DNA from: Acidimicrobiia bacterium
Lineage (GTDB): Bacteria; Actinomycetota; Acidimicrobiia; Spongiisociales; Spongiisociaceae
Assembly (NCBI GenBank): GCA_965231815.1
Contig: OZ246890.1
Span: 1,799,469-1,863,468 of the forward strand
Direction: 5' to 3'
DNA length: 64,000 bases
Part shown: piece by piece, positions 1,124-59,263 of the stretch
Layout: each line of letters begins with the position of its first letter
Position numbering within the stretch: position 1 is the stretch's first letter
Position numbers and translations under genes: made by a program
The notes under the pieces: generated by a model
What the model was told of the DNA's origin: nothing
Database searches by the model: none
Seen by the model: the letters and a program-made list of their open reading frames with translations, nothing else

Positions 1124-2647
1124 TCAGCCATTGACAGCACTTACGGCGCGGTTGAGGGCTTCGACGAAAGCGTGACCAGAACCTTCGACCACGTCGGTGG
1201 ACACCCCCCGTCCGCTATGGGTGGATCCGCCAACCTGTACTACCACGTTTACCTCCGCCATGGCGTCGGCGCCGGCCGTTACCGGAACCACACGATAGTC
1301 CAGCAGGCTGACGTCAAGGCCGAAAGCCTGCTTGAGAGCGTCAAAAGTGGCGTCAACCATTCCGCCGCCGGTTCCGGTGAACTCCTCGGTCTTGTGGCTA
1401 TCGCCGCTCTCGATAGTGACCGTCGAGGTGGGCGTGGTGTGGCTTCCCCCGCTCACGCTTATGGAAACCATCCGTACCGAGCCATCGGCTTGTGCATACC
1501 CCTGGCTGATGATCGCTCGCAGTTCTCGTTCGTTTATCTCGATCTTCCGGTCGGCCACGTTCTTGAATCGCCGGAAGGCTGCCGCGAACTCCTCGTCCTC
1601 CAACACGATGCCCAGCTTGGAGAGCGCATCTGCGAACCCGGCCCGCCCGGAGTGTTTCCCCAGGACGATCTGGCTGGTTGCTCCGACCGAGATGGGATCG
1701 ATGATTTCGTATGTTTCCCGATCCCGCAGCACCCCGTGCTGATGGATGCCCGACTCGTGGGCGAAGGCGTTCCGACCGACCACCGCCTTATTGAATTGAA
1801 CCGGATAGCCCGTTAGGCGGGATACCAGCCTGCTGGTAGGGACGATCTCTTCCGTGTTGGCGTCGACATCAACCCCGAAGTGGTCCCTCCGGGTTCGGAC
1901 GGCCATGATTATCTCCTCGGTGGAGGTGTTGCCCGCTCGCTCTCCTATACCGTTGATGGCGCCTTCGATCTGGCGGGCGCCCGCGTGGATCGCGGAGAGG
2001 GAGTTGGCGACGGCCAGACCAAGGTCGTTATGGCAATGGGTGGAGACGATAACGTCATCCCTACCCCCTAAAACCTCGTCGTATACCCGGCGTAGCAACT
2101 CCACGTAGTCCTCAGGTGTGGCGAACCCGACAGTGTCTGGGATGTTGATGGTGGTGGCGCCCTCCCGTACCGCGGCATGGCAGCACGCGATCATGAAGTC
2201 AGGGTCGGATCGGGTGGCGTCCTGAGGTGAGAACTCCACGTCGTGGGTGTAGCCGCGAGCTCGACGGACTGACTCGATGATCGAGTTCATAACCTCTCGG
2301 GGGGTCATCCGCAGCATCCGTTCCATGTGGATGGGAGAGGTGCTCTGAAAGACATGGATCCTGTGCCGCTCCGCATGACGCACCGCGTCGTAGGCGCGGT
2401 CGATGTCGTCGGGGTGGCACCGGGCCAGGGAAGCGATTACCGGACCCTTCACCTTTTTCGCGATCTGGGAAACACCGTAGAAGTCACCGTCGGATGCGGC
2501 GGCGAAACCGGCTTCGATGATATCTACTCGGAGCTTGGCCAACTGACGGGCGATGACGAGTTTCTCATCCGGGGTCAGCGCGATTCCCGGCGCTTGTTCG
2601 CCATCGCGAAGGGTGGTGTCGAAGATGATCAGCTTGTCTTGTGGCAT
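1124..2647 (-). CDS. leuA: 2-isopropylmalate synthase / citramalate synthase family (short form)
   Basis: [11 protein letters not shown] and [13 protein letters not shown] motifs; start taken at [15 protein letters not shown] extends to 2710; LeuA versus CimA not resolved. Confidence 0.85.
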
Positions 2648-2770
2648 GGGACTGCTCCGGTCTGCGTGTGGTCTGGAAGTCGGGCGGGATGGGGGAGGGT
2701 ACGCCTCCACAGCCCCTAACGGAGGCCGTGGAGGCCTGTTAGTGCCAGCAACTCGCGCAGAATCGGTCGA

Positions 2771-2886
2771 GGAGGGTGCTGAGAAACCCCGTACAAAGGG
2801 GTTCGCCGGCTAATCAAAGCACCCTGACCAGGTAGTTTCACCATACAGCCAACCCCGCTGGATTCGTTTTTCAGCATTCTCCTAGC
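2771..2886 (+). repeat. Interspersed repeat family A copy A1 (diverged, hybrid core)
   Basis: GGAGGGTGCTGAGAAACCCCGTACAAAGGGGTTC ... GTTTTTCAGCATTCTCCTAG with imperfect terminal inverted repeats; intergenic between ilvC and leuA. Confidence 0.7.
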
Positions 2887-2933
2887 AGAGGCGGAGAACC
2901 TGTGCCCTACCGCAGGCTTGGTGGAAGAAACCA

Positions 2934-3944
2934 TTAGCCGGGCGCCTTCGGAGTGAGGAACGGCATCAAGTCACGGAGCCGGGCGCCGACCTGCTCGATC
3001 TCATGGCTTCGTTCCCGTGCTCTGGTGTCGAGAAGCCGCGGAGCGCCTGCGCGGGCCTCGGTCATCCAGTTGCGAGCGAAAGTTCCGGACCGGATATCCT
3101 CCAGAACGTCCTTCATGACCTTGCGCGTCTCATCGGTAATGATACGGGGACCGGTGGAATAGTCTCCCCATTCGGCGGTGTCGGACACCGAATAGCGCAT
3201 CCACGTCAAGCCGCCCTCGTAGAGGAGGTCAACGATCAACTTCAACTCGTGAAGGGTCTCGAAGTAGGCGGACTCGGGTTGGTACCCGCCCTCGACCAGC
3301 GTCTCGTAAGACGCTTTGATCAACTCGGACAGACCACCGCACAGGATGACCTGCTCCCCGAACAGGTCGGTTTCGGTTTCTTCTTTGAAGGTGGTCTCCA
3401 GCACTCCGGCTCTGGCGCCGCCTATCGCCCATGCGTAGGAGAGGCCGAGTTCATGGCAGGCGCCGGATGAGTCTTGATGCACGGCTAGCAGGCACGGTAC
3501 GCCGGAACCTTCCGTGTAGGTGCGGCGCACTAGGTGTCCCGGACCTTTCGGGGCGACCATCAGAACGTCGAGATCTTTGTCGGGGCTGATCTCACCGAAG
3601 TGGATGTTGAACCCGTGGGCAAACATCAGGGCGTCGCCGTTTTGGAGGTGGGGGGCGATCTCCGCGTGGTATAGGTCGGCGGCGTGCTGGTCAGGTACCA
3701 GGACCATGACTACGTTCGCCCATTCGGAAACCTCCGCTACCGAGGCGACCGCGAGACCTTCGCCCTCGGCTTCCAACCGTCGCCGGGACGTCTCTCTGAG
3801 GCCGACCTTGACCTCCACGCCGGACTCCCGGAGGTTGAGAGCATGCGCATGGCCTTGGCTTCCGTACCCGATTACGGCCACCCGGCGGCTTGATATTACG
3901 GCCGGATCCGCATCGTGGTCGTAGTAGATGGAAGCCATGCTCAC
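2934..3944 (-). CDS. ilvC: Ketol-acid reductoisomerase
   Basis: [17 protein letters not shown] Rossmann motif and IlvC body. Confidence 0.9.
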
Positions 3945-9741: not shown

Positions 9742-9754
9742 GCTCCGATCTTAG

Positions 9755-9962
9755 CCCCGATTATTCATGGATGGAGGTTTGGGGGATGAGTGGAGTAGAA
9801 CCATATTCGCACCCTGACCAGGCAATACAGCTATCGGAGTTCCCCATTCGGGTCCGGTGTAGAGATTCACCTGTCGGGTGAACGGCGGGTTTCTCCTGAT
9901 ACTCGGGTTGAACAGGCGCTACATGCCTCGGTGTGTGGGAAACCTGAATAATCAGGGCTAGA
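9755..9962 (+). repeat. Interspersed repeat family B copy B1
   Basis: CCCCGATTATTCATGGATGGAGG ... GGTGTGTGGGAAACCTGAATAATCAGGGCTAG; near-identical copies at 43626 and 44975 and a reverse copy at 54099. Confidence 0.7.
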
Positions 9963-10250
9963 GCGTGCGGGGAATGGTCGGGACTGTCGCCCCGACCGTG
10001 TCGAGTAACGGCTCGGGAGAGTCTTCGGGCGGGCCGGAGTTCCCGACGGGTTACTCTGCTGGGGATGTGTACCGCACACCTGGATCGTTTTCGCTACTCC
10101 TGCCGGGGTTGTGGATGCGTGCCTATATGGTGACGTCGGTGAGAGCCGGATTCCTCCTTCAGCCCGACGTTCCTCATCCCTCATCGATCCGTCTGAAGTC
10201 TGTAGTGCCCGGGGCTAGCCTTTCCTCTGACCTTTGAGCTTTGTGAGATT

Positions 10251-15826: not shown

Positions 15827-16258
15827 GTGGCCTTACAGCCCATGTACTTCGAGCCCCGACAGATACTGAACTCCCAAGGCTATGCCGACCCTCCCGGTCC
15901 CGATAAGGGGGTTCTTCGCACCAGGTACATCGCCTTGGTGGAGGCCCGTCTTTACGATCGCAATGCTTCTGCCTTACAGCGCCAAGGGAGGCTGGCAACC
16001 TACGCACCATACGAGGGCCAGGAAGCGATCCAGATCGGAGCGGTAGCGCAGCTCCAGCCCGCGTGGCACCCCGATCATTCCTACGGTACGTCCGCCATCC
16101 TGTCGGTGGGGCGTTCCCATCCGAGACCGGTCGTAAGGGACGGTGCGGTTGCGATCGCTCACCAGTTTCCTCTGAGCCTTTCCTACGACCACCGCATAAT
16201 CGACGGAGCCGAGGGGCGCCGGTTCATGGCAGCGGTCACCGATGCATTGGAGAGCTAG
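15827..16258 (+). pseudogene. Deletion scar of a 2-oxoacid (branched-chain keto-acid/pyruvate) dehydrogenase operon: E1-alpha N-terminal fragment fused in frame to the E2 C-terminal ~50 aa
   Basis: ARLYDRNASALQRQGRLATYAPYEGQEAIQIGA (E1-alpha TPP region) followed by AILSVGRSHPRPVVRDGAVAIAHQFPLSLSYDHRIIDGAEGRRFM (E2 catalytic C-terminus) in a 143-aa ORF. Confidence 0.6.
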
Positions 16259-16260
16259 GA

Positions 16261-16372
16261 GGGTCCTGAAAAACGAATCTTACGGGGTTCGGCGGTTGGC
16301 AAACTGCCTGGTCATGGAGTTGTGGGTTAGCGGCCGAACCCCTTTGTGCGGGGTTTCTCAGCACCCTCCTAG
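16261..16372 (-). repeat. Interspersed repeat family A copy A2 (reverse orientation)
   Basis: Reverse complement matches A3/A4 almost exactly. Confidence 0.75.
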
Positions 16373-28513: not shown

Positions 28514-30262
28514 ATGAACTTGACCAGCAGCAACATCGAGCGCCGACTGCACCTCGGCGAAGACAGCCGTTGGGAGTTCAAAGCGATTGTCTTCACCGGG
28601 ACAGCGGTCAAAGGCCCACGCCAGCAGGATCTTGCGGATGAATTGTCGGCGTTCGCCAACGGACGAGGAGGGTTCCTTCTGTGCGGCGTAACGGATGACG
28701 GCCGAGTGCAGGGGATGACGCGAGCGCAGATGGACGCTCTGGAGCGGGTGCTGGTCGAAGCGTGCATCTCGTCGGTAAAGCCCTCTATCGACGTGGAGAT
28801 ATCTCGAATGGAGGCTGGTGGCGGGTCGCTCTTGGTGGTTGAAGTTCCGCCGGGGTACGCCCAGCACGACAGCCCGGGCGGCTGCTACCGCCGGGTGGGC
28901 AGTTCCAAACGCAGGATGACCAGCGACCAGTGTCTCCGGCTCGCTCAACAGAGAGGACAGGCCCGGTTTGTATGGTTTGATCGGCAGCCGGTGCCCGGCA
29001 CGGGGATCGAAACCCTGACCCATAGGCTGTGGAAACCATTGATCAGCGCGACAGGCGCCGCGGACACCCTGACGGCTCTCCAAAACCTGCGCCTGCTGGT
29101 CGGAGACGACGGTGACGTGTTGCGGGCGACGGTAGCAGGGATACTGCTGTGTACCGATGATCCGCAACGTTGGTTCCCTAATGCGTCCATAATGGCCACT
29201 CTCTACTCGGGCCGTGATCGAGCCTCCGGGCAGCACGACGCGCAGGAGATCACCGGTCCGCTCCATGAGCAGATCGCCGGGGCGGTACGGTTCGTGTTGC
29301 GCAACATGCGAGTGGCTGCTCGCAAGACACCCGGACGGGTTGACATACCTCAATACAGTATCGAGGCGGTATTCGAGGCCGTGGTGAACGCGGTGGCGCA
29401 CCGCGACTATTCCGTTCAGGGACAACGGATCAGGCTGTCGATGTTCGCGGATCGGCTGGAGATCGACTCACCGGGCGCTCTTCCCAACGGCATGACCATT
29501 GAGAACATGGAGGTCAGCCAATCCACACGAAACGACGTCATTGCGTCGGTCTTCGGGCGGGTTGCCGTAGCCGGCATCCCCGGTTCGCAGAACCGTCAAT
29601 TCCTCATGGAACGCCGAGGTGACGGGGTGGCCGTCATTCTTAGGCGAACCCGGGAGACATCCGGTCGGGATCCGGTTTACCGGCTGATCGACGAGTCCAA
29701 CCTCGGGCTGACTATCCCGGCCGCCTCCCTCGAGTTTGTCCCGGCCCATGCCACCGTCTCGGTTCGATCCTCGGCCGGTCCTCTCCCCGGCGCTGATGTC
29801 CTGATCCTATTCCCGAACAACACCTGGAAACGGGCCGTGACCGGCGAGAACGGGGAGACCACCGTCGCGCTGTACACGACGCATCTGCCCATGAGGGTGT
29901 TCGTAGCAGCCACCGGCTACTCGGCGCATGTGGGTAAGGAATGGATTCCCGGCCGGGGTGGGATGGTTGTTGAGCTTGATGATCTCCCCGCCGGCGGGGC
30001 GGTAATCTTTCCGGAGGGAACCGGATATGTTCCGGGATTGGCAGGGCGATTGAACCCAATCCGCGATGGCCATGACAGAACCTACCTGTACGCGTCCAAC
30101 GTCGCAATCGAGCGGGGACGCCCGCAGCCGGCCCATTTCGTACTCGGGGAAGAACTAAGCCTCACCGACGCCGAAGGCCGGGAGGTGTTGGTTCGTATGG
30201 TTGACATAGCCGGTAGCTCGGCGCTGCTTGAGTACCGGTTTCCGGTTGCTAGCCCTGATTAA
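28514..30262 (+). CDS. Schlafen-like AlbA_2 (divergent AAA) + HATPase_c_4 domain protein with ~190-aa extra C-terminal region
   Basis: N-terminal EFK ... ELSAFANGRGGFLLCGVTDDG; central NAVAHRDYSVQGQRIRLSMFADRLEIDSPGALPNGMT. Confidence 0.7.
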   Translation: MNLTSSNIERRLHLGEDSRWEFKAIVFTGTAVKGPRQQDLADELSAFANGRGGFLLCGVTDDGRVQGMTRAQMDALERVLVEACISSVKPSIDVEISRMEAGGGSLLVVEVPPGYAQHDSPGGCYRRVGSSKRRMTSDQCLRLAQQRGQARFVWFDRQPVPGTGIETLTHRLWKPLISATGAADTLTALQNLRLLVGDDGDVLRATVAGILLCTDDPQRWFPNASIMATLYSGRDRASGQHDAQEITGPLHEQIAGAVRFVLRNMRVAARKTPGRVDIPQYSIEAVFEAVVNAVAHRDYSVQGQRIRLSMFADRLEIDSPGALPNGMTIENMEVSQSTRNDVIASVFGRVAVAGIPGSQNRQFLMERRGDGVAVILRRTRETSGRDPVYRLIDESNLGLTIPAASLEFVPAHATVSVRSSAGPLPGADVLILFPNNTWKRAVTGENGETTVALYTTHLPMRVFVAATGYSAHVGKEWIPGRGGMVVELDDLPAGGAVIFPEGTGYVPGLAGRLNPIRDGHDRTYLYASNVAIERGRPQPAHFVLGEELSLTDAEGREVLVRMVDIAGSSALLEYRFPVASPD

Positions 30263-30287
30263 ACAGGGCTAGCAAGCAGGGGTACGA

Positions 30288-31100
30288 GTGCGAATAGTTG
30301 TCGTAGGGCCCGGGCGGGCCGGAGGCTCGGTGGCGGTGGCGGCCCGGATGGCCGGTCACGATGTGGTCGGGGTATACGCCCGGAGAAAAGACGCCACCGA
30401 TGTCGCCGATCACCTCGGATTGACCACCACGCTGGTGGGAGAGACCATGCCGGAGGCCGATCTCATCGTGGTGGCGGTGTCCGATGACGCCATCCGGCCG
30501 GTGGCGAAGGAAATCTCGCCGGGTGCGGCGGCGGTCCCGAGGGCGGTGCATCTGTCGGGTCTCGCTTCCCTGGAAGTTCTGGATCCCTTGCGGCGGATAG
30601 GCTTGCAAGTCGGCGCCTTCCATCCTCTCCAAACCCTTCCCGATTGGCGCACCGGCGGCGCCTCCCTGAGCGGATCCTTCGTAGGAATAACGGCGGAAGA
30701 TGATCTTGCGGAGTTTCTCGATCGGTTGGCGGTCTCGCTCGGATGTAGCCCCGTGCGGATCTCCGAGGAGATGAAGCCCCTGTATCACGCGGCGTCGGCG
30801 GCGGCTTCCTACTACGTCGCTACGGCTCTGGCTATCTCCGAGGCGCTCTACTCGAAAGCAGGCGTGAACTTGGAAGTGGCCCGGCCCCTGACCGGGCACG
30901 CAGTGGGGAACGCGTTCGACTTGGGCGCTACGCATTCTTTGACCGGCCCGATTGTCAGGGGAGACATCGGCACGGTACGCGATCAATTGGAAGCTGTAGA
31001 CCAGCATGCGCCTCATCTGTCGGAGGCCTTCCGGGCCTTCGCTCGCGCCACGGCGGGGTTGGTAAGCACCGACGAGTTATTGAAGGATGTACTGGCATGA
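30288..31100 (+). CDS. Rossmann-fold DUF2520-like protein, conserved neighbour of panC
   Basis: MRIVVVGPGRAGGSVAVAA NAD(P)-binding N-terminus. Confidence 0.6.
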   Translation: MRIVVVGPGRAGGSVAVAARMAGHDVVGVYARRKDATDVADHLGLTTTLVGETMPEADLIVVAVSDDAIRPVAKEISPGAAAVPRAVHLSGLASLEVLDPLRRIGLQVGAFHPLQTLPDWRTGGASLSGSFVGITAEDDLAEFLDRLAVSLGCSPVRISEEMKPLYHAASAAASYYVATALAISEALYSKAGVNLEVARPLTGHAVGNAFDLGATHSLTGPIVRGDIGTVRDQLEAVDQHAPHLSEAFRAFARATAGLVSTDELLKDVLA

Positions 31101-31127
31101 AGGTGGTCAGGACCATGGCGGAGGCTA

Positions 31128-31243
31128 GGAGGGTGCTGAGAAACCCCGTACAAAGGGGTTCACCCGCTAACCCACAACTCCATGACCAGGCGGTTTGCCG
31201 ACCACCGAACCCCGTAAGATTCGTTTTTCAGGACTCTCCTAGG
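31128..31243 (+). repeat. Interspersed repeat family A copy A3
   Basis: CTAGGAGGGTGCTGAGAAACCCCGTACAAAGGGGTTCACCCGCTAACCCACAACTCCATGACCAGGCGGTTTGCC ... TTTTTCAGGACTCTCCTAG; between DUF2520 gene and panC. Confidence 0.75.
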
Positions 31244-31258
31244 GCTGAGAGGAGGGGA

Positions 31259-32092
31259 GTGGTCGGTCTGGTTCCGACCATGGGCTTCTTTCATGAAGGC
31301 CATCTCTCGCTCATGGAGAGGTCGGTGAGTCAATGCGACCTGACCCTGGTCACCATATATGTCAATCCGTTGCAGTTCGACGATCCGGGAGACCTGGCGC
31401 GATACCCCGTCGACCATGATCGGGATCTGGCTCTGGCCGATCAGGTAGGCGTAGATGTGGTGGTGGTTCCCGATGCGGACGAGATGTTTGCCGCCGCTCC
31501 GCTTACACAGGTGTCGGTGGCCGGTATCGGGAGTCGCTTGGAGAGTCGCTTCCGGCCCGGTCACATGACCGGGGTAGCGACGGTGGTCACCAGATTGTTT
31601 GCCGGGTTGCAGCCCGATGTCGCCTACTTCGGTCGAAAGGATGCGCAGCAACTGGCTATGGTGACCCGGCTGGGTTCTGACTTGGGCTTCCCCATACGGG
31701 TGGTCGGCTGCCCACTCATCCGGGAGCCTGACGGTCTGGCCCTATCGTCACGAAACATCCTGCTGGGAGATCGTCGAGAGGAGGCACTCGGTCTGTCGCG
31801 TGCTCTTATGAAGGCGGCCGCGATGTTCGAGGCCGGGGAACGAAGAGCCGAGTTCATCGAAGAGGCGGTACGAAGCTATCTCGATCCCACCGCGCTCGAC
31901 TACGTGGAGGCCTGTGACGCAAATACCATGGAGCGGGTAGCAAACGCCGAAGGGGAGGTCGTTCTAGCGATGGCTGCCCGGGTCGGTTCCATCCGCCTGA
32001 TCGACAATGTACGACTTCGCGCCGAGGGGAACTCGCTCGAAGCAGATCGCGGAGTGTGGTTGGACAGCCCTAGCGTGCTCTACAGTGCGTGA
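31259..32092 (+). CDS. panC: Pantoate--beta-alanine ligase
   Basis: VGLVPTMGFFHEGHLSLM; the listed ORF start at 31097 reads through repeat A3, so a GTG start after the repeat is assumed. Confidence 0.85.
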   Translation: MVGLVPTMGFFHEGHLSLMERSVSQCDLTLVTIYVNPLQFDDPGDLARYPVDHDRDLALADQVGVDVVVVPDADEMFAAAPLTQVSVAGIGSRLESRFRPGHMTGVATVVTRLFAGLQPDVAYFGRKDAQQLAMVTRLGSDLGFPIRVVGCPLIREPDGLALSSRNILLGDRREEALGLSRALMKAAAMFEAGERRAEFIEEAVRSYLDPTALDYVEACDANTMERVANAEGEVVLAMAARVGSIRLIDNVRLRAEGNSLEADRGVWLDSPSVLYSA

Positions 32093-42488: not shown

Positions 42489-42526
42489 AGGCCGTAACGA
42501 CCGATGAGATGAAAGGAGTCCGACAC

Positions 42527-42979
42527 ATGGACTTGAAGGGCAAGAGCGTGGTGGCGATCGGTGAGCGGGAGGGGGTCAACGGACCCAGCCTCAAGCTGCT
42601 GGCCGAATCCGCCGGCGCCGATGTGGTGTTCAGCGTTACCCAGTGCTTCGTCTGAACGGCGGGGGGCGCCATGGACCTGGAGGATCAGGCGAACGTCAAC
42701 CGCCTGGCCGAGACCTCCGTCGGTGACGAGATGGTCGTGTTGCTCGGGCAACCGGACGCCAACAGCGCCGGTCTCTTCGCAGAGACGGTAACGAGTGGCG
42801 ATCCGACCTGGGCTGGTCCTTTGGCCGGAGTCCCGTTGGGACTTCCTGTTTATCACATACTGGAGCCGGAGATCAAAGAACAGATCGATGAAGAACTCTA
42901 TGACGAGCACGTTGGCCTGATGGAGTTGTCGGCCGATGTGGATGAGATAATCCACTGGGTGGCGATCTGCAGAGATTGA
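42527..42979 (+). CDS. grdA: Glycine reductase complex selenoprotein A, in-frame UGA (Sec) at 42653-42655
   Basis: SD AAAGGAG 8 nt upstream of the ATG; MDLKGKSVVAIGEREGVNGPS ... VVFSVTQCFV-U-TAGGAMDLEDQ ... GDPTWAGPLAGVPLGLPVYHILEPE. Confidence 0.85.
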
Positions 42980-43130
42980 GACCGTACTTCCTTCGATGCT
43001 CCGGCCCGCCTGCCCCGGCGTAGGCAGGGCAGCAGGCTAAGTGCCTTACCCGGCCCCGGGTTCCGGTGCCCGAACGTGTGCGGGACCCGCGGAGGATGAT
43101 CGAAGCTGTATTACCTGGTCAGGACGTGAC

Positions 43131-43246
43131 TAGGAGGTGCTGAGAAACCCCGTACAAAGGGGTTCAGCCGCTAACCCACAACTCCATGACCAGGCGGTTT
43201 GCCGACCACCGAACCCCGTGAGATTCGTTTTTGAGCACCCTCCCAG
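43131..43246 (+). repeat. Interspersed repeat family A copy A4
   Basis: Near-identical to A3; preceded at ~43105-43125 by an inverted fragment of the family B core. Confidence 0.75.
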
Positions 43247-43625
43247 TGTCCCGAGTCGGAAGTTCCGTGCACATCGCGAGTAACCACCCGGCCTGCTTCC
43301 GGCACAGACCCGGGTTAAGATCGCGAAAACCGAACTACCCGGATGGGACCCCTCTCAGTGGGACCCACCCCCGGCCGCCGCCTCCTCAGCGTCGAAACGC
43401 GTCCCGCTAACCCCTCGCCTTGCCAAACAGAGGCAAGGCAGAAGAAAACAAGCAAGATGATCCCAACCCCGGTCCGGTCGGTACCTGACCCAACCGTCGG
43501 TGCTTTACGGTTACCCACCAGTATGCAGACCGGGTATGACAGATTTCCCCGGCCGTCGGGTTACGCCCGTCGGAAAGATTTCGCGGTCTCCCGAACACAA
43601 GCGAAACAACGATTCACGACACTAG

Positions 43626-43832
43626 GCCCGATTATTCATGGATGGAGGTTTGGAGGATGAGTGGAGTAGACCATATTCGCGCCCTGACCAGGCAATACAG
43701 CTATCGGCGTTTCCCATCCCGGTCCTATTTAGAGATTCACCTATCGGGTGAACGGTGGGTAGCCCCCCAAAACTCGGGTGGAACTGGCGTAACATGCCTC
43801 GGTGTGTGGGAAACCTGAATAATCAGGGCTAG
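43626..43832 (+). repeat. Interspersed repeat family B copy B2
   Basis: Full-length B copy just downstream of the polyprenyl synthase gene. Confidence 0.7.
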
Positions 43833-43887
43833 GCCGCTTTGCCATTCATCGGCATAACCCCTGCCCCATGAAGGATCGGGGCCTGCC

Positions 43888-44883: not shown

Positions 44884-44974
44884 TTCGTTTGCTCCGCCTC
44901 GGGAAAAGGTCTTCCCTATGCTAAAGACATGTGCATTGATCGCCACCATCGTCGGGTCGATCCACTTTGGCGTA

Positions 44975-45184
44975 ACCCCTATTTTTGATGGATGGGGGTT
45001 TGGGTATGGGTGGAGGAAGCCACAATAGCGTCCTGACCAGGCAATACACCTATCGGCGTTTCCCGTCCCGGTCCGGTGTGGAGATGCACCCGCCGGGTGA
45101 AACCGGTCGGTTCCTACTAAATAATCAGGTTGAACCGGCGATACATGCCGCGGTGTGTGGGAAACCCGAACGATCAGGGTTAAA
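44975..45184 (+). repeat. Interspersed repeat family B copy B3
   Basis: Full-length B copy between the polyprenyl synthase start and clpC. Confidence 0.7.
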
Positions 45185-53989: not shown

Positions 53990-54098
53990 CGGATTCTCCC
54001 TTCCCTGTTGACAGGATTCCGGCGGGTCAGCTCGACAATCCGGTGCTTCACCGCTCTTGTCAACCCGAACGTCACGAAACGGTTCGAGCCGACCACTC

Positions 54099-54304
54099 CT
54101 AGCCCTGATTATTCAGGTTTCCCGCACACCGAGGCATGTAACACCAGTTCCAACCCGAGTATACGGCGAAACCCACCATTCACCCGGAGGTGAATCTCTG
54201 CACCGGCCCGGGATGGGAGACACCGATAGTTGTATTGCCTGGTCAGGGGCGTGATTACGGCGTAATCGACTCATCTGTCAAACCCCCATCCATGAATAAT
54301 CGGG
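54099..54304 (-). repeat. Interspersed repeat family B copy B4 (reverse orientation)
   Basis: CTAGCCCTGATTATTCAGGTTTCCCGCACACCGAGGCATG ... CCATCCATGAATAATCGGGG. Confidence 0.7.
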
Positions 54305-54332
54305 GCTGAAGTAGGACTGATGGTTATCGTTC

Positions 54333-57889: not shown

Positions 57890-58774
57890 ATGATTGAAAC
57901 GCGGGTTGTTCGTAGTTCCGATGCCGCTGGTGGGTCGGATGGATCGGAGGGTGGTTTGGAAGAGACCGGAGAGGTGTCGGTTGCTCCGGCCCGTCAGGTT
58001 CCCAAGAAGGCAGCCGCTAAGAAAGCTGCCGCTAAGAAAGCTGCCGCTAAGAAGGCACCTGCCAAGAAGGCTGCCGCTAAGAAGGCACCTGCCAAGAAGG
58101 CTGCCGCTAAGAAGGCTGCCGCTAAGAGGGCTCCCGCCAAGAAGGCTGCCCCTAAGAAAGCTGCCGCCAAGAGGGCTCCCGCCAAGAAAGCGCCCGTGAG
58201 GAGGGCCCCACCCAAGCGCCGGAATCCGCGGTCACGCAAAGCTTCCCGGAAGTCGTCTTCAACCAATAGGCGGAAGATTTCATTCAAAGTAGGCGACAAG
58301 GTAGTCCATCCTCATCACGGAGCTGCGTTGATCACCAGACAAGTTGAACAGGAGGTCGTGGGCGAGAGTCGTTCCTACTTCGAACTCCAAGTTGCAACCG
58401 AACAACTCACCGTGTTCGTGCCGGTAACGTCGATGGATCAGATTATCCGGCCGGTGATCTCCAAGACCGCCGCTACCAAAGTGATGCGCATCTTCAAGGA
58501 AGACCCTCAGTCATCGGGAAACAACTGGAGTCGATGGTACAAGGTGCTCAACGAGAAGATGACCTCCGGCGACATCTACCAAGTGGCGGAGGTGGTCAGG
58601 GATCTGACCTATTCCCAGCACACCAAAGGTATTTCCCCGGCCCTCAAACGCATGCTGTCACGGGCACGGGTAACGCTGACCAGTGAACTCGCCTATGCCC
58701 TCAGTATCAGCACGGAAGAGGCGGTCGAGCGTCTTGATCGGGCTCTCCCCGATGCGGAGTCCGTAGGCGTTTAG
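57890..58774 (+). CDS. carD: CarD/CdnL-family RNA polymerase-binding regulator with ~130-aa N-terminal Lys/Ala-repeat extension
   Basis: [21 protein letters not shown]-interacting domain and [28 protein letters not shown]; N-terminal [10 protein letters not shown] repeats; followed by ispD-ispF-cysS as in mycobacteria. Confidence 0.8.
58005..58195 (+). repeat. Tandem 15-bp coding repeat (GCCGCTAAGAAAGCT-like, AAKKA pentapeptide) inside carD
   Basis: About 12 consecutive near-identical 15-nt units. Confidence 0.7.
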
Positions 58775-59056
58775 GGCTTGATCGTTCATGTTTCCGGCTC
58801 CCTTGTGTCCTGAGTCGGAGATTCATTGACGATCGCGATAACCATCCGGGTGCACCGGCAGGTTCGGGGGTCCGAGAACGCGAAAAACGCCGGAACGGTG
58901 ACCTCCAAACAGGGCCCGCCCCCGCCTCCACCTCCGAGGTCTCCTGAACGCGATCCGCTGAACCCCGTCGTCGGGGGAGACGGTCGAATTGTCCGCATTT
59001 TGATGATCCCTGCCCCGGTTCGTTCGGTACCGAACAACCCGAACCGGCGGTGTTTA

Positions 59057-59263
59057 ACCCCGATTTTTCATGCGAGGCGTTTGCCCCGGCGATTTGGCAG
59101 CCTGAATGGGCTCCTGACCTGGGATTACGGTGGACTTGACAGGCTCGTCGGGTTGACCGCGACCGTCACCCATGAGCTGTATACGAATGGAGCACGTAAA
59201 ACGGGCTTGACCTGGCGGTTTATGGGTGGGTGTGTCTGGAAACATGAAGAATCAGGGTTAAGG
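59057..59263 (+). repeat. Degenerate family B copy B5
   Basis: Ends CCCCGATTTTTCATG ... GGAAACATGAAGAATCAGGGTTAAGG match B termini at B-like length; interior strongly diverged. Confidence 0.5.

Follow-up and report, generated by a model that had tools for sequence, protein, structure and literature searches.

Family A, a short repeat found at four places in the 64-kb stretch of DNA analysed here (the window), is, as judged by sequence comparison, a mobile non-autonomous DNA transposon (MITE), and one of its copies lies in frame within panC. It is a previously undescribed family of a well-known kind, most likely the IS5 type, and has been recently active in sponge-associated Acidimicrobiia. 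That an IS5-family transposase moves it in trans into CTAG is a reading we hold with good confidence. The MITE character had been suggested by the first-pass annotation and is borne out by terminal inverted repeats (TIRs), lack of coding capacity, insertion in both orientations, CTAG flanks and the filled and empty sites of close relatives. Only the clean in-frame panC insertion is above the ordinary, and no new mechanism is revealed.

A repeat finder and a family HMM both give four copies, and no fifth, in the window. The boundaries given here count the flanking CTAGs.

2768-2885, plus strand: copy A1, in the ilvC-leuA spacer, antisense to the operon, with left flank CGAG and right flank CTAG
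16255-16372, minus strand: copy A2, upstream of a TrkA-type K+ channel gene
31125-31242, plus strand: copy A3, an in-frame insert that separates panC codon 10 from codon 11, flanked left and right by CTAG
43130-43246, plus strand: copy A4, 150 nt past the grdA stop codon

The unit measures 117-118 nt with the CTAGs and the element proper about 110-112 bp. Its 27-nt core occurs four times in the window against 0.00 times expected from 100 shuffles. Relative to the host genes, two copies are sense and two antisense. The four copies and their strands agree with the first-pass annotation, whose boundaries were 1-6 nt off (A2 begins 6 nt earlier), and three of its contexts were right: the ilvC-leuA spacer, a deletion scar directly 3' of the stop of an E1/E2 fusion remnant, and the region downstream of grdA. 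The fourth context, a spacer between the DUF2520 gene and panC, was wrong, as A3 sits within the panC reading frame. An assembly artefact, the outcome that would have undone the annotation, is excluded by the presence of the family in independent assemblies.

Copies A2, A3 and A4 are pairwise 89-94% identical and A1 is 75-81% identical to those three. A1 is a diverged sub-family member (nhmmer E=1.9e-30) that groups with its closest relative, the copy in a Ca. Spongiisociaceae MAG (L005), at 82% identity. The sister genome has no insertion at the A1 site, so the divergence of A1 is due to a different source sub-family and not to long residence there. In A4, the 5' TIR has a 1-nt deletion and the 3' flank is mutated to CCAG; a conserved segment (C segment) and then a copy of a second repeat, family B copy B2, follow on its 3' side.

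By the alignment of the four window copies, family A reads CTAGGAGGGTGCTGAGAAACCCCGTACAAAGGGGTTC ... GAACCCCGTAAGATTCGTTTTTCAGGACYCTCCTAG. Its TIRs, of the form GGAGGGTSCTGARAAAC and 19-20 nt long, are CTAGGAGGGTGCTGAGAAAC and CTAGGAGGGTCCTGAAAAAC, the latter being the reverse complement of GTTTTTCAGGACCCTCCTAG. The consensus ends quoted earlier and the imperfect nature of the inverted repeats were correct by the alignment and a TIR scan. The scan places the TIRs of A3 as follows.

31125-31144, plus strand: 5' TIR, CTAGGAGGGTGCTGAGAAAC
31223-31242, minus strand: 3' TIR, reverse complement CTAGGAGAGTCCTGAAAAAC

Among 13 full-length copies, the TIR is invariant or nearly so and CTAG stands at both ends in nearly all. 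No variation occurs in the first 37 nt, not even in A1 and L005, the diverged copies, and the centre is variable. A second inverted pair, GGGGTTC/GAACCCC, lies about 10 nt inward of each TIR. The internal hairpin reported earlier is present, but its arms are AACCCC/GGGGTT and 6 bp long, since the sequence is GGGGTTC and not GGGGTTT.

Family A is non-coding. The frame equivalent to that of panC contains stops in 8 of the 13 full-length copies, and the net length is not a multiple of 3 in 5 of them. Only three copies are both stop-free and of in-frame length, and the remaining frames nearly all contain stops. Thus, the family as a whole is neither kept open nor adapted to coding insertions.

Filled and empty sites in close relatives demonstrate the mobility. 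A3 is a clean 114-nt addition when compared with L013, L014 and L015, which are all empty. The A1 site is empty in L023, L024, L026 and L027, which comprise the sister genome (OY760694.1, L023), two Logan contigs and more distant relatives. A2 is absent from the ...GGAGAGCTAG site of the relative L029, where the same flanks enclose about 150 nt of unrelated sequence; that this spacer might be a family B copy was rejected, as the family B HMM had no match in it.

Conversely, L014 carries insertions that neither the window nor L013 has. One A-type copy replaces the last hpt codons, changing LDQHSV* to LGRC*, and another lies directly on the TAG stop codon of clpC. Moreover, the L003 and L010 copies of OY760694.1 are 100% identical to each other and the L008 copy is 97.5% identical to both. 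Family A copies are cheap presence/absence markers at the strain and species level.

CTAG bounds nearly every copy on both sides, one L014 copy lying at TTAG. The empty sites of relatives read CTCG or CCAG in panC and CGAG between ilvC and leuA, each one base off CTAG. The ancestral target in the lineage of the window was presumably CTAG, although the left flank of A1 is still CGAG. The net gain upon insertion is 114 bp. CTAG being palindromic, duplication of all 4 bp (IS5-like) and of the inner TA only (2 bp, IS630-like) look alike and give the same gain.

In the proposed mechanism, a DDE transposase encoded elsewhere would move family A in trans by cut-and-paste. It would recognise the 19-20-bp TIRs and insert the element at 5'-CTAG-3' (YTAR) sites. 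A staggered cut, once filled in, would leave CTAG on both sides and lengthen the site by 114 bp. Both the TIR shape and the target point to an IS5-family transposase. We infer the identity of the transposase, the duplication size (4 versus 2 bp) and any effect of the hairpin (roughly -45 to -55 kcal/mol) on host mRNAs.

The terminal repeats of family A resemble the IS5 type (GGAAGGTGC / GAGGGTG type). Its ends GGAGGGTCCTGAAAAAC / GGAGGGTGCTGAGAAAC were compared with the E. coli IS5 ends, GGAAGGTGCGAAYAAG, as read from E. coli K-12, and with the MITEPsy1 and ISPsy19 TIRs; 12-15 of 16-18 positions match the IS5-family ends by eye. The IS5 repeat starts with GGAAGGTGC and that of family A with GGAGGGTGC, and IS5 duplicates its 4-bp target 5'-YTAR-3' (PMC5009759). 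They differ in that IS5 is 1.2 kb long and encodes the transposase InsH, whereas family A encodes nothing.

Among described elements, MITEPsy1 of Pseudomonas syringae pv. phaseolicola comes closest to family A. It measures 100 nt, carries the TIR GGAAGGTCTGAAAAAGCC, duplicates 4 nt of target (CTAG or YTAA), has been attributed to the IS5-family ISPsy2 and was trapped transposing in vivo; another IS5-family element, ISPsy19, has the TIR GAGGGTGTAGACAAAAT (PMC3189936). Both MITEPsy1 and family A (about 110-114 nt) are non-coding, have TIRs of 18-20 nt that are very similar in sequence (GGAAGGTCTGAAAAAGCC versus GGAGGGTCCTGAAAAACG), show the tetranucleotide of a CTAG/YTAA target on both sides, and lie in spacers, genes and other mobile elements.

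Outside the TIR, however, the two are not similar, and their hosts are Pseudomonadota and Actinomycetota sponge symbionts, respectively. MITEPsy1 shifts the frame by its 104 added nt, whereas the 114 nt of a family A insertion can leave the frame intact. For MITEPsy1, entrapment has demonstrated transposition and a parent IS is known, while mobility of family A is deduced from comparative genomics with no parent found.

No full-length IS bounded by family A TIRs was found in about 376 kb of loci, and the loci scanned contain no TIR pairs 0.8-2.5 kb apart. By Pfam, the ORFs beside truncated copies in L008 and L011 are unrelated genes except for one DDE_Tnp_1/DUF772 transposase. This is an IS5/IS1182-like protein of 522 aa (DDE_Tnp_1 / DDE_Tnp_1_6 / DUF772; L008 364-1932, minus strand, OY760694.1). 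A distance of 170 nt separates its gene from an A copy, which itself adjoins a family B end, and neither A- nor B-type TIRs surround it.

An unlikely alternative assigns the same MITE to an IS630/Tc1-mariner-type transposase, with the TA in CTAG as the target and only TA duplicated. A TA duplication would account equally well for the 114 bp gained and for the CTAG at either end. Tenzen and Ohtsubo (1991, as cited in PMC2170065) reportedly described a preference of IS630 for TA in 5'-CTAG-3'. What disfavours such an enzyme is the TIR start GGAGGGTG, which resembles the ends of IS5, ISPsy2/MITEPsy1 and ISPsy19, and no IS630-type transposase was seen in the loci examined, in a search that was not systematic.

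The foldability of family A raises a further alternative, that it is a structured ncRNA, or an mRNA element regulating in cis (as attenuator, stabiliser or RNase III site, the last for instance a domesticated REP/ERIC-like hairpin), kept by selection on the transcript. The whole unit folds into one long imperfect hairpin from either strand at -42 to -59 kcal/mol with z of -0.9 to -5.0. The invariant first 37 nt would suit such an element, and one-sided changes in the outer stem mostly retain G-U pairs on the plus strand. Transposase binding sites, however, would also look like conserved ends. The asymmetry of G-U versus A-C was tried as a strand indicator and, with 4 A-C mismatch cells beside 8 G-U ones, was not convincing.

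Compensatory changes are essentially absent: the covariation term of the family alignment amounts to -0.07 kcal/mol, and a double change is seen in just 1 of 25 pairs. Being too young a family, with arms conserved as such, it gives no covariation signal. The first-pass annotation had proposed an Rfam comparison, in which no family matches family A. The sole match at the gathering score in the whole window is a tRNA, and searches of A3 and the A4-C-B region at E<=10 or E<=1 bring up nothing relevant. Promoter and terminator scans find no such site inside the element. Moreover, the copies take both orientations relative to transcription, one of them is in a coding frame, and their presence or absence between close relatives makes them dispensable. 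Selection on an RNA is thus very improbable.

REPs are palindromes of 20-40 nt with a GTAG-type head, and have neither target duplication nor TIR-bounded ends. A REP/REPIN-type palindrome spread by a RAYT (IS200/IS605-like Y1) transposase is the least credible reading, as family A, though an extragenic palindromic repeat in operon spacers with a TnpB/IS605-type gene in one related locus (L030), has a unit of 118 nt, 20-nt TIRs, CTAG flanks and clean insertions of 114 bp, with no RAYT seen nearby and no Y1 transposase adjoining any family A copy. That TnpB-type gene (OrfB_IS605 + Cas12f1-like_TNB) lies at 1746-3089 (minus strand) of L030 and L031 in GCA_964516495.1 and interrupts a short-chain dehydrogenase gene.

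With family A taken as a MITE of the IS5 type, its panC copy can be examined as an insertion into a gene. The panC ORF containing A3 is as follows.

31097-32092, plus strand: panC, whose ATG overlaps the DUF2520 stop codon (ATGA) and whose frame reads through the element

The insert adds 38 codons (114 nt net) to panC after codon 10. Only one of the six frames through A3 is stop-free and it is the panC frame. Twelve PanC homologues, the closest being 91% identical, lack the insert and read MKVVGTMAEA followed directly by RAERRGVVGLVPTMG (RAERRG after the junction), while PanC of the window reads MKVVRTMAEA-RRVLRNPVQRGSPANPQLHDQAVCRPPNPVRFVFQDSP-RAERRGVVGLVPTMG. At the DNA level, the empty sites of L013, L014 and L015 have GCGGAGG followed by CTCGGGCC or CCAGGGCC, and the window has GCGGAGG-CTAG-(element)-CTAG-GGCT.

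Pseudogenisation of panC was considered and shows no sign of decay, as the dN/dS of 0.21 against L013 with the insert removed is ordinary here (0.05-0.43 in neighbouring genes), but this value averages the time before the insertion. In an AlphaFold model (48 sequences, mean pLDDT 89.7), strand 2-4 and the entire PanC fold are retained with high confidence, and residues about 16-47 form a low-confidence loop. Solved PanC structures align only from query residue about 48-56 on. Both dN/dS and the predicted structure are compatible with a tolerated insertion, without proof of function.

A3 is the sole in-gene case among about 19 family A copies examined, the rest being intergenic or at gene ends. 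An intragenic copy can survive only if its orientation and reading frame are the single combination free of stops, as in panC. Hence, from its sequence context, A3 looks like a survivor of selection on panC.

Tentatively, we go one step further: A3 may be translated through to give a working pantothenate synthetase with a 38-residue surface loop, and the family and its sub-families may be exchanged horizontally among co-resident Acidimicrobiia. For the latter, the copy of 82-85% identity in the Ca. Spongiisociaceae MAG is a hint; among the best 120 matches of IlvC and PanC (lowest identities 72% and 51%), none is attributable to that MAG. For the former, the parallel is with the Rickettsia palindromic elements (RPEs), which Ogata et al. 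are said to have described in 2000 as selfish DNA in protein-coding genes.

Like RPEs, A3 is a short palindromic repeat in frame within an otherwise intact housekeeping gene, and its peptide forms a loop at the surface in the model. Regular in-gene copies as in RPEs are not seen for family A, with 1 of about 19 being intragenic, and we know of no CTAG-bounded TIRs reported for RPEs. If A3 is translated, it would be selfish DNA within an essential gene of a sponge-symbiont actinomycete. A3 is also a natural experiment on the tolerance of a Rossmann-fold enzyme to 38 inserted residues. In annotation, taking the element as a spacer would misplace the panC start or make the gene appear broken.

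Several other gene ends, now using the TAG or TGA of the element, can likewise be misread. The terminal CTAG, or a TGA four codons into the TIR, ends upstream frames at A2, at L008 5159-5162, where two convergent ORFs end at a family A copy, and at hpt and clpC of L014. At A2, the terminal CTAG provides the TAG stop of the E1/E2 fusion remnant, ORF 15827-16258. The TIR halts translation within five codons in two of the three forward frames (C-TAG; CTA GGA GGG TGC TGA). In panC, the element introduces no stop and the frame reads through.

The simple explanation of these terminal stops is that a gene's own TAG stop codon frequently forms part of the CTAG used as target. With TAG in the target, copies often land on or beside stop codons or in spacers. 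The earlier suggestion that the termini preserve stop and re-initiation signals in the manner of MIRUs is supported for the use of stop codons, but not for re-initiation at GGAGG. GGAGG stands at the upstream end of the element in both orientations, at a distance of about 110 nt from the gene that follows. At the downstream end the sequence is CCTCCTAG, so the downstream gene receives no Shine-Dalgarno sequence from the element.

MIRUs form tandem arrays (VNTRs) of 40-100-bp units with small overlapping ORFs. Family A resembles them in occupying operon spacers and in its interplay with the stop codons of adjacent genes, but differs in being dispersed as TIR-bounded single copies without a start codon or Shine-Dalgarno sequence downstream. 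Correia of Neisseria, RUP of Streptococcus pneumoniae and the ERIC-type MITEs have 100-150 bp, TIRs, co-transcription with operons and long hairpins. Correia and RUP target TA, and promoter, IHF-site and RNase III functions occur in this group. Their terminal sequences and targets differ from those of family A, which has no promoter or terminator signal.

An exact-pattern scan of 185,579 species genomes, not including the genome of the window, returned 12 loci. Ten are in one chromosome-level MAG, Acidimicrobiia bacterium OY760694.1 (4.14 Mb). One is the full-length copy in the Ca. Spongiisociaceae MAG, which belongs to the class Acidimicrobiia; its identity to the other copies is 77-85%. The last is a match to the 27-nt pattern only in a Succinivibrio contig, and is probably due to chance. 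No homologue of the element was found by blastn against 72,556 plasmids.

The OY760694.1 loci contain at least 12 full or partial family A copies, and the family occurs also in three further assemblies. A metagenome scan with the TIR revealed a second sub-family of about 107 nt, which has the same TIR with a different core and is present in GCA_964516495.1 (L014 2162-2268) and in metagenome contigs. The family HMM found diverged copies at L010 2196-2311 and L014 17440-17543.

The window is collinear with the Logan contig L013 over 21 kb at 92-93% identity, and the IlvC proteins of the window and OY760694.1 share 97% identity. Hence, the window comes from a sister species of OY760694.1. The window copies have CCATGACC in common, where the OY760694.1 copies have CTCTGACC, which suggests that amplification was separate in each lineage.

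Family B is also MITE-like, with about 210 nt, the TIR TAGCCCYGATTATTCAKG and YTAR-like tetranucleotide flanks. The window has five copies, of which the fifth is diverged and copy B3 is absent in L014.

9750-9963: family B copy
43621-43833: family B copy
44971-45184: family B copy
54098-54309, minus strand: family B copy
59054-59262: family B copy

In OY760694.1, family B is more abundant than family A, with three copies in the 21-kb locus L023. The two families together mark recent transposon activity in chromosome-level MAGs of sponge-associated Acidimicrobiia. A family B-like core had been noted in A1; the shared word is real but occurs in every A copy, as TGACCAGG, and so does not set A1 apart. 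Its counterpart in family B is CCCTGACCAGGC. The common word of 8-11 nt is TGACCAGG, extended to CCCTGACCAGG in A1 and to CTGACCAGGC in the OY760694.1 copies. By a rough estimate, two such consensus sequences share a 10-mer by chance in about 4% of cases, so kinship of A and B on this word is suggestive and short of proof. A and B copies abut via a shared CTAG in L008 and L019/L022, which fits a common target preference.

A perfect palindrome of 22-24 nt, CTAGCCCTGATTAAACAGGGCTAG, lies at 30249-30272 of the window and at L013 8877-8898, between SLFN_AlbA-like and DUF2520 genes. It amounts to a head-to-head pair of family B TIRs, is shared with the sister genome by conservation and may be a minimal element or an excision footprint.

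The C segment spans about 376 nt between A4 and B2 (window 43247-43622) and has a counterpart at L007 3032-3407. It is 92-95% identical to this OY760694.1 stretch, whose locus is otherwise not syntenic, and abuts an A copy in both genomes, with the A copy in opposite orientation. Rfam gives no match for the segment, whose fold has z of -1.5 on the plus strand and -2.7 on the minus strand. A third repeat and a conserved non-coding RNA are both conceivable.

The A4-C-B2 repeat cluster forms the right edge of an amidohydrolase and glycine-reductase (grd) block at 34.5-43.1 kb of the window, which is present also in L013. In L014, lysS is directly joined to the polyprenyl synthase gene without this block. 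Within it, grdA (42500-42979, glycine reductase selenoprotein A) has an in-frame TGA at 42653-42655 in TQCFV-TGA-TAAG. This TGA is, as read from the sequence, the expected selenocysteine codon, and the Pfam GRDA model matches both halves of the gene.

The fusion remnant beside A2 joins an E1-alpha N-terminus to an E2 acyltransferase C-terminus. As E1a-E1b-E2 are intact in L023 and L029, the 2-oxoacid dehydrogenase operon of the window has a deletion of about 2.7 kb. AAKKA-type stretches are found in the histone-like tails of actinobacterial DNA-binding proteins. One such Ala/Lys-rich stretch is encoded by a 15-nt tandem repeat at 57972-58226 of the window.
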